A stretch of 64,000 bases of DNA, taken from positions 2,819-66,818 of the forward strand of contig CALYAP010000014.1 in assembly GCA_944393575.1 (NCBI GenBank). Direction: 5' to 3'. A program made the translations under genes and the position numbers. Of this stretch, positions 40,225-59,994 are shown piece by piece. This stretch comes from an uncultured Clostridia bacterium. Its GTDB lineage: Bacteria > Bacillota > Dehalobacteriia > UBA4068. Position 1 is the first letter of the stretch; the number at the start of each line of letters is the position of its first letter. Below the pieces are notes generated by a model. The model saw only the letters and a program-made list of their open reading frames with translations, was not told the DNA's origin and did not search any database.

Positions 40225-41157
40225 TTAAAGCATGTCTTTTTTGCGCAGCAGAATAATACAGAAAATGCAAGCAATAAGTGCAGCCACTAGAATGATAACA
40301 AAGCCGAATATCGACCCTGAATTTTCAAAAGGAACACTGACATTCATACCCCAGAAACTGGCGATCATCGTCGGAATAGCCAAAATAATGGTGATGGACG
40401 TCAGTAATTTCATGGTGGTCGAAAGATTATTAGAAATCATGGATGAAAAGGCGTCAGTGGTGGATTTAGTAATATTGCCGTAAATCTCCGCCATTTCGAT
40501 AGCCTGGGAATTTTCGATAATAACGTCTTCGAGAAGATCAACATCCTCTTCATACATTTTAATCGTTTTTCCCCGCAGCAGCCTATTCATCACCTTGGCA
40601 TTATAACGTAGGGAGGTGGAAAAATAGGTTAAGCTCTTTTGAAAATTTAGCAGAGCCAGTAATTCTTTGTTTTTCATGCTTTTGGTCAGCTCTGCTTCCA
40701 TTTTTTCTGCCCTGCGATTAATATCACGCAGATAGCGGAGAAAAAGTGTGGTTTTGCGATTCAGTGTATGGAAAATAAAACGTGTTTTCTTAAAAGTAGC
40801 AATTCCCTTAATCCTGCTAAGGTTGAATTCTTCCAGCAAGTTGGTGTCTTCCAGACAAACAGTTACGATATAGTCGTCATTAAGAATCATACCTAGAGGA
40901 ATTGTATCATAGATGATATCATCATCAGTTCTGATTGGCACATTGATAATGATCATCGCTTGATCATCTTCTACTTCAACCCTTGGAATCTCTTCATCAT
41001 CGAGGGGATATTTCAAGAAGTCATAATCAAGACCGGTCTCTGCAGATACGCGGTTTATTTCTGCTTCAGTCGGATTGACCAGATTGATCCAGCAGTCCTT
41101 TTCAATTTCATCCCGACATTGTAATTTATTATCAATAGTACGATAGATGAAAATCAT
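40225..41157 (-). CDS. corA: CorA-family Mg2+/Co2+ transporter
   Basis: C-terminal two TM with the GMN motif (FWGMNV); ATG start after RBS AAAGGAGG. Confidence 0.9.
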   Translation of the reverse strand: MIFIYRTIDNKLQCRDEIEKDCWINLVNPTEAEINRVSAETGLDYDFLKYPLDDEEIPRVEVEDDQAMIIINVPIRTDDDIIYDTIPLGMILNDDYIVTVCLEDTNLLEEFNLSRIKGIATFKKTRFIFHTLNRKTTLFLRYLRDINRRAEKMEAELTKSMKNKELLALLNFQKSLTYFSTSLRYNAKVMNRLLRGKTIKMYEEDVDLLEDVIIENSQAIEMAEIYGNITKSTTDAFSSMISNNLSTTMKLLTSITIILAIPTMIASFWGMNVSVPFENSGSIFGFVIILVAALIACIFCIILLRKKDML

Positions 41158-41337
41158 AGACAAACCTCCTTTGGTAGGGAGGCTAGGCGATCATGACCAC
41201 GCACGGCCTCCCTTGATAACAATGCAGATAATATGAGTGATAGTCGCTACTCGGGCAACCGTCCATGGTATCACCTCCAAAAAATTTTCATGTAAATCGC
41301 AACCAATTTATTATACTGCATATTTTTATTTTTGCAA
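41158..41337 (-). promoter_or_regulatory. corA promoter (TTGCAA-16-TATAAT) and ~145-nt structured leader with an anti-SD hairpin and a 27-codon uORF
   Basis: See findings. Confidence 0.45.
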
Positions 41338-41525
41338 AGCTTTTTTACGCTAATTTTAAAAAATTAACATTATTTTAGCAGGCCGAAAGAAGATTGCTTG
41401 TTTTTATCGATACAGCATGATATTAGTTATTTGATGATATTAGGTGAATTATTTGCTCCGGATAAAGATATATTGTATAATAACCGTAGCATCTATACAC
41501 ATCTTACATATTTGGAGGACACTCT

Positions 41526-42866
41526 ATGCGACAAATGACAGCAGTTATTCTCGCTGCCGGCCAGGGAACGAGGATGAAAAGCAATAAACCTAAAGTTTTG
41601 CATGAAGCAATGCATAAACCATTGGTTCAATATGTTATTACTGCAGTTCATCATGCGGATATTGAAGATATATGTATCGTTGTTGGCCATGGTGCTGATG
41701 AAGTTAAAAAAGCGCTTGGTGAAGAAGGGTATATCTATGCTCTTCAAGAGCAACAGTTGGGAACTGGCCATGCTCTTATGCAGGCTATGCCGGTTCTCCC
41801 GCCTAGCGATAGTATTATGGTTCTATGCGGAGATACCCCTTTGCTTACAGACACTACCCTGCAGCAACTACGGGAATATTTTACTGCCACTGAGGCTGCG
41901 TGTACTATAATGACCACTGTTTTACCTGATGGAGGTAATTATGGCCGCATTGTCCGTGATGCTAATGATGAGGTTGCAGCTATCGTAGAAGCGCGTGATG
42001 CTTCTGCTGAAGAGTTGGCTATTGGCGAAATAAACAGTGGCGTCTATTGTTTTGACCGTGAGGCGTTGACAATGGTCATTGATAAGCTTACCCCTAATAA
42101 TTCGCAAGGGGAATACTATCTGACTGATATCATTAGTGAGCTCAGAGCTATTGGCAAAAAGGTTAATGCCTATGTTTGCCAAGATGCTGACGAGATCATG
42201 GGTGTCAATGACCGCTATCAGCTTTTTCAAGCCTCAGAAATACTTAGAAAGAGAAAAAATATGGCACTGATGCTCTCAGGTGTTACCATGGTGGATCCTA
42301 ATACGGTTTATATTGATGATACTGTGGAAATAAGCCCTGACTGTATCATTGAGCCGCAAGTATATATCGAGGGCGTTTGCCGCATTGGCAGTGGGTGTCA
42401 TATTGGCCCATCCGTCAAGATTAGTAATAGCGTTCTTGGCGATAATTGTGAGGTTGGCCCATTTTGCTATCTCCGCCCGGGGACAGTTTTAGCGAATGGG
42501 GTTAAGGCGGGACACTTTGTTGAAATTAAGAAGAGCCACGTGGGTAGTGGCTCTAAGGTACCTCATTTAAGCTATATCGGTGATGCTGAGATTGGGGAAG
42601 GAGTCAATATAGGCTGCGGCACTATCACCTGTAATTATGATGGCAAAAATAAATATTCCACCACTATTGAGGATGAAGCATTCATTGGCTGTAATACTAA
42701 TTTAGTGGCTCCGGTAACTGTTGGCCACCGTTCAACTATAGCAGCTGGTAGTACTATAACCGAAGATGTTCCGGAAGATTCTTTAGCCATCGCTCGCGGT
42801 CGTCAGCGTAATATCAAGGGTTGGACGGAAGCTAAAGATCCGCGCTATAAAAATAATGACGAATAG
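41526..42866 (+). CDS. glmU: bifunctional GlcNAc-1-P uridyltransferase / GlcN-1-P acetyltransferase
   Basis: LAAGQGTRM N-terminus; C-terminal left-handed beta-helix hexapeptide repeats. Confidence 0.95.
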   Translation: MRQMTAVILAAGQGTRMKSNKPKVLHEAMHKPLVQYVITAVHHADIEDICIVVGHGADEVKKALGEEGYIYALQEQQLGTGHALMQAMPVLPPSDSIMVLCGDTPLLTDTTLQQLREYFTATEAACTIMTTVLPDGGNYGRIVRDANDEVAAIVEARDASAEELAIGEINSGVYCFDREALTMVIDKLTPNNSQGEYYLTDIISELRAIGKKVNAYVCQDADEIMGVNDRYQLFQASEILRKRKNMALMLSGVTMVDPNTVYIDDTVEISPDCIIEPQVYIEGVCRIGSGCHIGPSVKISNSVLGDNCEVGPFCYLRPGTVLANGVKAGHFVEIKKSHVGSGSKVPHLSYIGDAEIGEGVNIGCGTITCNYDGKNKYSTTIEDEAFIGCNTNLVAPVTVGHRSTIAAGSTITEDVPEDSLAIARGRQRNIKGWTEAKDPRYKNNDE

Positions 42867-58797: not shown

Positions 58798-58938
58798 AGC
58801 AGAGGATTTTATATCCTTAAGCAGAAATAGCTATTTATACTTGAGTTTGTATAAAAATGGCATGATCGTATTTATGATGTTTTGCAGGGCAAGTAGTAAT
58901 ATCTATAAAGATACTCTTTATTTATTGGAGGTAATCTC

Positions 58939-59994
58939 ATGCGTGAAATGTTTAGCCTGATCAAACAAAATATTGAAACTGGCAATGATGTAATTTTAGT
59001 AAGTATTATTGGTGATTTTGGCTCTGCCCCCAGAGGAGCCGGTGCTCATATGCTGGTTAATCATTCCGGCCGTATTTATGGCACCATTGGCGGTGGCGCT
59101 GTTGAGTATCAGTCAGAGAAATTGGCTGCCGAAGCACTACAAGAAGGACGTTCTTTAATTAAAGCCTTTAGCCTGGATCAGAACCAGGTTGAAGATATCG
59201 GTATGATTTGTGGCGGCAATGTTTTAGTGATTTTTCAATATATTAGTGCTAACGACGATCAAGGTGTCGAAGAGATTTGTGATGAAGCCCTTGCCATGTT
59301 GGATAAAAATGAAGATGCCTGGATGGTTTGTGAACTTTTGGATGATGATAGCTGGAAAATGGGGCTCTATAGCGAGTCCGCTGGTTTGATAGGTATTGAT
59401 GCCGATGTTGATGGCATAAGAGAGCATCTGCGCACTAATTCTGTGCGTTTTAACTTCCGTGATAAAAAATATTATAGTGAGCCGATCCATCAAGGAGGCA
59501 GGGTATTGGTTTTTGGCGGTGGACACGTTGCTCAGGAATTAGTGCCAGTTTTGGCTCATGTAGGGTTTAGCTGTGTGGTCATCGATGACCGGCCGGAATT
59601 CACTAGACCTGAGCTTTTTCCTGGAGCTAAAGATGTTATTATGCAGGGGTTTGAGGATATAGATTCTTATTTGCATATTAACAGAAGAGATTATATTGTT
59701 ATCATGACTCGCGGACATGCTCATGATTATACAGTACTGCGTCAATCTTTGCTGGTAGATACCACTTATGTTGGGTGCATTGGCAGTCGTGCTAAAATCA
59801 GCGGCACTACCCAGCGTTTGCTTAATGATGGCATTCCGCAAGAAAAGATCGATCACATTCACTGGCCGATCGGTCTGGCTATTAAAGCGGAAACACCGGC
59901 GGAAATCGCTATTAGCATTGCCGGGGAGTTGATTATGGTGCGGGCAGAGCTGGCCGGACAGAAGCCACAATGGAACCATGCATGGCTAGGTTAA
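58939..59994 (+). CDS. XdhC/CoxI-family molybdenum-cofactor insertion accessory protein (orphan)
   Basis: XdhC_CoxI N-domain plus Rossmann-like XdhC_C (VLVFGGGHVAQEL). Confidence 0.75.
   Translation: MREMFSLIKQNIETGNDVILVSIIGDFGSAPRGAGAHMLVNHSGRIYGTIGGGAVEYQSEKLAAEALQEGRSLIKAFSLDQNQVEDIGMICGGNVLVIFQYISANDDQGVEEICDEALAMLDKNEDAWMVCELLDDDSWKMGLYSESAGLIGIDADVDGIREHLRTNSVRFNFRDKKYYSEPIHQGGRVLVFGGGHVAQELVPVLAHVGFSCVVIDDRPEFTRPELFPGAKDVIMQGFEDIDSYLHINRRDYIVIMTRGHAHDYTVLRQSLLVDTTYVGCIGSRAKISGTTQRLLNDGIPQEKIDHIHWPIGLAIKAETPAEIAISIAGELIMVRAELAGQKPQWNHAWLG

Follow-up and report, generated by a model that had tools for sequence, protein, structure and literature searches.

How is corA, the gene of a Mg2+ importer, controlled in Clostridia, and what does the long leader that precedes it in one uncultured member of this class do? 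Regulation of corA has long been regarded as constitutive, and the known control of Mg2+-transporter genes in Firmicutes is the M-box riboswitch; to our knowledge, Mg2+-responsive control through a corL leader has so far been shown only in enterobacteria. The DNA considered here, referred to as the window, is a stretch of 64,000 nucleotides (nt) of contig CALYAP010000014.1 from an uncultured Clostridia bacterium. On its minus strand it contains a corA gene whose 5′ untranslated region (5′-UTR) holds a short upstream open reading frame (uORF). We report that this region is a conserved leader-peptide attenuator of corA that has not been described previously; in the literature searched we found nothing comparable and no account of a corA leader peptide from Firmicutes. 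It is probable, in our view, that the attenuator is translational, that it is built of four RNA segments and depends on the uORF, and that corA expression is positively coupled to uORF translation.

Organization of the corA leader

The corA coding sequence extends from 41157 to 40225 on the minus strand and encodes 310 amino acids. The product matches the Pfam CorA family (PF01544) with 185 bits against a cut-off of 27, and carries the GMN motif (…FWGMNVSVPF…). Upstream lies a promoter of the sigma-A/sigma-70 type (41337-41310, minus strand), in which TTGCAA (41337-41332) and TATAAT (41315-41310) are separated by 16 nt; the scan also allows the reading TTTGCA-17-TATAAT. Transcription presumably starts near 41303, ~7 nt past the -10 box. 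With this start the 5′-UTR is ~146 nt long, in agreement with the ~145 nt of an earlier reading of the same DNA by a model (the original prediction). By itself the promoter consensus is not above chance in the scan, with 5 sites found and 6.0 expected. Of 32 orthologous leaders, 25 have a similar -35/-10 pair at a distance of 36-79 nt on the 5′ side of the uORF AUG, which places the uORF within the transcript. These 32 non-redundant leaders, mostly from uncultured gut Peptococcaceae or Bacillota genomes, form the comparison set used below.

About 27 nt of leader precede the Shine-Dalgarno (SD) sequence of the uORF, GGAGGTGA (41278-41271, minus strand), which is followed by 4 nt and the ATG at 41266. 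The uORF itself (41266-41183, minus strand) has 27 codons and a stop, encodes MDGCPSSDYHSYYLHCYQGRPCVVMIA and is conserved upstream of corA in the 32 leaders; its SD (GGAGGUGA) is nearly invariant in an alignment of 26 leaders. The TAG stop (41185-41183) supplies with its G the first base of the 3′ arm of an inverted repeat, which consists of GGGAGGC (41212-41206), 22 nt and GCCTCCC (41183-41177) on the minus strand. Repeats of the form GGGAGGC-N15-30-GCCTCCC occur once in the window and in none of 100 shuffles. The corA SD, AAAGGAGG (41172-41165), comes next, and 7 nt separate it from the corA ATG at 41157. The promoter, the uORF, the inverted repeat and the corA SD all lie where the original prediction had placed them on the minus strand.

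Distribution of the uORF

A protein-anchored scan yielded 80 corA loci, one per species. The 24 closest all belong to metagenome-assembled genomes of uncultured gut Peptococcaceae, Bacillota or Clostridia, and at 22 of these a uORF beginning M-D-G-x-P-S occupies the same place. The uORF is also present at the more distant loci L027, L032 and L050, where CorA is ~50% identical. Metagenome DNA was scanned with a DNA pattern independently of corA, and gave at least 120 matches, mostly chance occurrences in high-GC DNA; among the matches listed, 11 (9 distinct) have a short uORF of this type, and corA follows in all of them. These metagenome leaders include two lineages with a CorA that is only 46-48% identical. 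Across the genome and metagenome loci the uORF is always directly upstream of corA, and covariance models made from the leaders match only directly upstream of corA in ~0.63 Mb. The original prediction had staked itself on conservation of the hairpin and the uORF in orthologous leaders, and it is not refuted on this count.

One candidate for a second leader, a covariance-model match of 22 bits at 58923-58990 on the plus strand of the window, was rejected: it corresponds to the SD and ATG (GGAGGUAAUCUCAUG) of a 351-amino-acid open reading frame that starts at 58939.

Coding-level selection on the uORF

The uORF is coding, and its first ten codons (41266-41237, minus strand), which read MDGCPSSDYH in the window and MDGxPSSDYH in the family consensus, are under coding-level selection. 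Summed over codons 6-10, entropy is 3.19 at third positions, compared with 1.71 at first and 1.11 at second positions, and conservation collapses beyond codon 10. All four proline codons are in use at codon 5. The sequence TAYCAC, which encodes Tyr-His, stands at five different offsets (24, 27, 30, 33 and 39) and always in frame, whereas the frame of GGGRR in R2, a pairing segment in the later part of the uORF, varies (17/7/5). It is thus only in the early uORF that indels have to be multiples of three. The original prediction had not recognised the conservation of the leader peptide. We take the uORF to be translated.

Among the N-termini of the family are MDGCPS, MDGDPG/S, MEADPS/G and MDVGPS, and more distantly the consensus is M-D/E-x-x-P-S/G. 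An acidic residue (D or E) at position 2 and a proline at position 5 are universal, and a subset has a second acidic residue at position 4 (MDGDP, MEADP, MDADP). RNA pairing was considered as a cause of the Tyr-His conservation and rejected, the duplex energies being no better than those of shuffles (mean z = -0.19).

Two side observations concern the same segment. In the window, UAUCAC (41242-41237) is the exact complement of GUGAUA in the spacer that follows the uORF SD (41273-41268; both minus strand), and it resembles the 3′ tail of 16S rRNA. At locus L017 (1335-1436), the conserved peptide segment is duplicated in frame (MDGAPSGDYHSSDYH…).

Predicted folding

The 166-nt leader folds with -55 kcal/mol (z = -3.2), and 1 of 200 shuffles is equally stable. 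The minimum-energy fold omits the GGGAGGC:GCCUCCC pairing and uses two other hairpins instead. The first, P1, is a long hairpin in which R1 (41276-41253, minus strand), which runs from the 3′ part of the uORF SD across the spacer and the AUG to codon 5, pairs with R2 (41212-41185), the segment GGGAGGCCGUGCGUGGU…AUCGCCU inside the uORF; the uORF start codon is buried in it. The second is the SD hairpin, in which AGCCUCC of R3 (41184-41178) pairs with R4, GGAGGUU (41169-41163), that is, the GGAGG of the corA SD plus UU. R3 as a whole is the anti-SD sequence (A)GCCUCCC (41184-41177), and its bases 41183-41177 have an alternative partner in the first 7 nt of R2, the SD mimic GGGAGGC (41212-41206). 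The resulting R2:R3 hairpin, which is the one of the original prediction, is an alternative to P1 and the SD hairpin.

P1 together with the SD hairpin is the minimum-energy fold in almost all leaders. The probability that the corA SD is paired with the anti-SD is 1.0 in the window, and its mean is 0.94 over 26 compact leaders, so that R4 is sequestered in the predicted ground state. The uORF AUG pairs with the 3′ arm of P1 with a mean probability of 0.81 (>0.5 in 28 of 32 leaders), and the uORF SD is partly paired within P1 (mean pairing probability 0.52). When R1 is masked in silico, pairing of the anti-SD with the SD falls from 0.94 to 0.48 and its pairing with R2 rises from 0 to 0.40, the outcome being bimodal. 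The original prediction, broadly correct but supported only in part, had proposed two mutually exclusive states; what it missed is the dominant helix, P1, which joins the uORF SD and start codon to GGGAGGCCG… and makes OFF the default.

Two further structures were considered. The 5′ end of the transcript (GCGAUUUACAUGAAAAUU, 41300-41283) can pair with the start of corA (AUGAUUUUCAUCUAUCGU, 41157-41138; both minus strand) with -13.8 kcal/mol. This pairing was rejected as lineage-specific or due to chance because it is not conserved in relatives and because, as the negative control of the swap test described below, it gives p = 0.13. An intrinsic terminator inside the corA leader was rejected as well, since the scan found none and there is no conserved stem followed by a U-run.

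Co-evolution of three pairings

All three pairings, R1:R2, R2:R3 and R3:R4, are under selection. In an alignment-free swap test, the duplex energies of segments from the same leader were compared with those of segments exchanged between leaders (20000 permutations). Energies of self and permuted duplexes are -28.2 and -23.2 kcal/mol for R1:R2, and -15.3 and -12.4 kcal/mol for R2:R3, with 0 of 20000 permutations as low in either case; for R3:R4 they are -11.6 and -9.95 kcal/mol, with 2 of 20000 permutations as low. By these tests CCUCCC co-evolves with both of the alternative partners that the original prediction had assigned to it, GGGAGG and the corA SD.

Pair counts were made in a 30-sequence alignment that was fitted to the model and thus favours the structure: 80.9% of cells are paired, compared with 71.3% in shuffles (none of 500 shuffles reaches 80.9%), and 19 of 28 pairs show compensatory changes. 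The slid controls, which like the swap tests are free of that bias, have 37-50% of cells paired, and a 21-sequence set agrees with the larger one. For R3, compensatory changes occur in 6 of 7 pairs of helix 7 of the model. The uORF start codon takes part in the covariation, a change from AUG to GUG being accompanied by a change from U to C in its partner (AU 16, GC 5). From a plain MAFFT alignment, RNAalifold recovers the GGGAGG:CCUCCC helix, with compensatory changes.

The whole architecture is kept at two metagenome loci, L126 (7869-8036) and L139 (2328-2484), of the lineages with a CorA 46-48% identical to the window's. There the corA SD is GAGGGUGG, the anti-SD is CCCUC and R2 is AAGGGUUU, a concerted change of all three.

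Position of the uORF stop

Across the family the uORF is 21-33 codons long, and in 29 of 32 leaders its stop falls between -17 and +12 nt from the first paired base of the anti-SD arm. Frame 0 is open to within 12 nt of this arm in 30 of the 32 leaders, the other two frames in 15 and 0, respectively; shuffles of the unconserved part of the uORF are open to the anti-SD arm in ~43% per leader. A ribosome that finishes the uORF must therefore invade or cover the anti-SD arm. The original prediction had the uORF terminate inside the GGGAGGC/GCCTCCC hairpin. In the window the G of the stop does belong to the 3′ arm of the repeat, but what is conserved among the leaders is a uORF end at, or within, the 5′ arm of the SD-sequestering hairpin.

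A model for attenuation of corA

We propose that, with no ribosome on the leader, R1 pairs with R2 (GGGAGGCCG…) and R3 with R4, and that both start sites would then be buried (OFF state). In the ON state a ribosome would load on the uORF, probably co-transcriptionally and before R2 is made, and would occupy R1. R2 could then capture R3, and the corA SD would be released. As the ribosome advances it would unwind R2, terminate at the foot of the anti-SD arm or inside it, and hold R3 open. The open window would last for as long as a ribosome is on the uORF, and slow early elongation would prolong it.

The conserved N-terminal peptide most likely slows or destabilises early elongation; its best explanation is a programmed slow-down by which the open window would be lengthened. 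Its effect may be Mg2+-dependent, by analogy with MgtL and CorL, in which case low cytoplasmic Mg2+ would lengthen the ON state and lead to more CorA. Mg2+ sensing through the translating ribosome is plausible because the N-terminus resembles those of E. coli CorL and MgtL. The order in which these events take place, the pausing and the role of Mg2+ as signal are inferred.

Relation to known leaders

The leader resembles the enterobacterial mgtL and corL leaders, with translation initiation as its predicted output and not transcription termination. The corL leader of enterobacterial corA was reportedly described by Kriner and Groisman in 2015. It has in common with the present leader the gene it precedes, a short uORF in a 5′-proximal stem-loop, and mutually exclusive downstream pairings that are set by uORF translation. 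In E. coli K-12, corL (annotated as ysgD, with a TTG start as published) encodes MDTPSRYWLTILSSRINS (L202:219-275, corresponding to NC_000913 4001218-4001274), so that MDTPSRYW… may be compared with MDGxPSSDYH, MDVGPSYRRL and MEADPSRLSF in the Clostridia leaders. Two papers that cite this work (PMC5314796, PMC11552253) describe, for Salmonella and E. coli, a corA leader with the uORF corL and Rho-dependent transcription termination, and a conserved CorL N-terminus with a single proline. We also note that the first codons of corL, GAC ACA CCC AGU AGA UAC, resemble those of the window, GAC GGU UGC CCG AGU AGC GAC UAU, both as peptide and as nucleotides.

The two leaders differ in more than phylum. 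The enterobacterial output is Rho-dependent termination, whereas the geometry of the window, with its sequestered SD, predicts a translational output and positive coupling; a knock-out of the uORF start codon is accordingly predicted to have the opposite sign in the Clostridia leader. Searched with covariance model R2 (21 leaders), the E. coli corA leader (L202) yields no match with E up to 1. That leader was also scanned as a positive control and matched no family of Rfam 15; Rfam therefore cannot test kinship with the corL leader.

MgtL, too, is a leader peptide encoded upstream of a Mg2+ importer, with an acidic residue and proline after the Met (MEPDPT compared with MEADPS, MDGDPG and MDGCPS). 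Translation of mgtL aborts at this N-terminal sequence, more so at low Mg2+; in mgtL-mgtA the EPDP destabilises the ribosome intrinsically, and inefficient early elongation is proposed to turn the transporter on. MgtL differs in having four prolines and in being combined with Rho termination and promoter control by PhoPQ, whereas the Clostridia leader has one proline, a longer conserved segment (to Tyr-His) and a predicted translational output. The comparison with mgtL drawn in the original prediction was apt in that M-D/E-x-x-P-S/G resembles MgtL; the resemblance to E. coli CorL is closer.

In its layout the leader is comparable to those of ermC and ermB. In erm attenuation the leader ORF has its own SD, and there are four segments, of which 1:2 and 3:4 pair when the system is off and 2:3 when it is on; segment 4 contains the SD of the gene under control. 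The corA leader has the same mutually exclusive four-segment layout, as judged from folds, swap tests and pair counts. It differs in that the SD and AUG of the uORF are inside helix 1:2 and the uORF runs through segment 2 to segment 3, and in that there is no antibiotic, corA being the gene of a cation channel. Leaders of the cat-86/cmlA type, and classical translational coupling, are similar in another respect, namely that the leader ORF reaches with its end into the 5′ arm of the SD-masking hairpin, so that a ribosome located there unmasks the SD. Those leaders have 6-9 codons, a single hairpin and a drug-dependent stall, compared with 21-33 codons and two more co-evolving helices in the corA leader.

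The M-box (ykoK) is likewise a 5′ leader of Mg2+-transporter genes in Firmicutes, but the corA leader lacks its multi-helix aptamer and has a uORF instead. The original prediction had set the M-box aside, and rightly so: its covariance model (RF00380) has no match in 40900-41700 at E up to 10. An Rfam scan of the same interval gave only chance-level matches (E >=0.17), far below the gathering scores, and no Rfam family, whether riboswitch, rRNA or other, reaches its gathering score in the whole window. The published 'corA motif' riboswitch candidate is confined to Gammaproteobacteria.

It is conceivable, although on the whole doubtful, that an M-D/E-x(1-2)-P-S/T nascent chain is a portable, ribosome-intrinsic Mg2+ sensor. 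Proteobacteria (MgtL, CorL) and Clostridia would then both have it in front of Mg2+ importers, either by recruitment or by descent from a shared ancestor, and it would be read out by Rho termination in one phylum and by SD unmasking in the other. If so, the Clostridia leader would have no Gram-positive precedent, nor any precedent for a purely translational read-out. More generally, the proposed mechanism would imply that enterobacteria are not alone in sensing Mg2+ through the translating ribosome. At ~130 nt and with no need for Rho, the leader would also make a compact test system for the cell-free study of how a nascent peptide reads the status of the ribosome or of Mg2+. Because the family is small and the organisms are uncultured, its value is mechanistic and comparative rather than physiological.

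Evidence against the model and alternative explanations

Several observations weigh against the proposed attenuator or against parts of it. Masking of R1, by itself or together with the loop, leaves the corA SD mostly unpaired in no more than 8-9 of 32 leaders, and in about half of the leaders the SD hairpin is still the more stable structure. A purely thermodynamic switch of the erm kind is therefore insufficient, and the model leans on kinetics and on direct unwinding by the ribosome, both of which we infer. In the pair counts, made on an alignment fitted to the other structure, the R2:R3 columns are indistinguishable from shuffles; for R2:R3 we rely instead on the swap test and on RNAalifold.

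The peptide is open to a second reading in its first part. GAC is used by 29 of the 32 leaders and GAT by none, and CC in the proline codon pairs with GG of R2. Codons 1-5 are thus also constrained by P1, and a constraint on the RNA could account for some of the apparent peptide motif, even for what CorL and MgtL have in common with it. CorL and MgtL share with these peptides the pattern M[DE]x(1,2)P[ST], which no more than 0.4% of background ORF N-termini have, but which was chosen post hoc, with the sequences already seen. The Clostridia peptides have only one proline and one or two acidic residues, fewer than the EPDP of MgtL. In enterobacteria, translation of corL is inversely related to corA expression (PMC5314796, PMC11552253), a sign opposite to that of the proposed coupling.

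The distribution has gaps as well. Among the 24 closest loci, L010 and L011 have a short leader in place of the uORF leader. Both are from Peptococcaceae and encode a CorA 73% identical to that of the window (L010:2740-3000, L011:2740-3000). Because a promoter lies directly upstream of their short UTR, the uORF leader has been lost or replaced in this lineage. The motif is absent from 51 of the 54 more distant corA leaders. A relaxed search of the 54 more distant corA genes for a uORF with M[DE]x(1,2)P[STG] matched only L027 and L032; the motif is not general in Firmicutes.

The weakness of the equilibrium R2:R3 switch in half of the leaders is what constitutive coupling without any sensing would lead one to expect. 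In such a scheme the ribosome on the uORF simply melts the SD hairpin, the result is a fixed low output of CorA or a tie to translation capacity, and the peptide is irrelevant. It also fits this scheme that 29 of 32 leaders have their stop where the anti-SD arm begins, with a frame kept open to there. We nevertheless regard this scheme as unlikely, since it does not explain the codon-periodic conservation and the in-frame-only indels of codons 2-10, the co-evolving R2:R3 pairing, or the burial of the uORF start in a co-evolving helix of 25-30 kcal/mol.

The next two alternatives both retain a sensor, and we give little credence to either. The first is direct sensing by the RNA, in which P1, the SD hairpin or both respond to Mg2+ or temperature, be it as a riboswitch, as a helix stabilised by Mg2+ or as an RNA thermometer; the uORF would then be incidental or would only signal that P1 has opened. 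Both start sites are indeed in predicted helices, Mg2+ in general stabilises RNA helices, and the opening of P1 as a gate for uORF initiation is compatible with the data. There is, however, no match to an Rfam family, the M-box, Mg sensor and thermometers included, and the apical region of P1, hypervariable both in sequence and in length, contains no conserved internal-loop core. The 3-nt periodicity of conservation and the open reading frame are not accounted for. The likeness to riboswitch or thermosensor platforms suggested in the original prediction lacks support on the same grounds: the P1 loop is hypervariable, an aptamer-like core is lacking, and conservation follows codons.

The second, which is about as improbable, is a ligand-dependent arrest peptide of the erm, cat or SpeFL type that answers to a signal other than Mg2+, the ribosome stalling on MDGxPSSDYH only when a small molecule, a different cation (Co2+, Ni2+) or a compound that targets ribosomes is present. 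The conserved segment is N-terminal and 10-11 residues long, which is reminiscent of short drug-sensing leaders; the four-segment layout matches ermC; and CorA also carries Co2+ and Ni2+, E. coli corA being annotated as a Ni/Co/Mg transporter. Yet what is regulated is the gene of a cation channel rather than one for resistance, the likeness to CorL and MgtL speaks for Mg2+, and we know of no arrest motif to which the peptide is similar.

Finally, amino-acid-level selection on the N-terminal decapeptide might suggest that the uORF encodes a free-standing small protein, for instance a CorA modulator, to which the RNA pairings are secondary, but this is highly improbable given that its C-terminal half is unconserved in sequence, length (21-33 amino acids) and frame relative to R2, that the peptide has no hydrophobic segment and no Pfam match, and that three RNA pairings co-evolve.

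Other features of the locus

Downstream of corA, a hairpin resembling an intrinsic terminator (40206-40165, minus strand), with a 19-pair stem followed by a T-run, closes the transcription unit. Within the leader, a 6-codon mini-ORF, ATG AAA ATT TTT TGG AGG TGA (41290-41270, minus strand), overlaps the uORF SD; it lacks its own SD, and L016, the closest relative, does not have it. On the other side of the promoter, the glmU-prs pair is divergent from corA; glmU starts at 41526 on the plus strand, and ~190 nt (41338-41525) separate it from the corA promoter.

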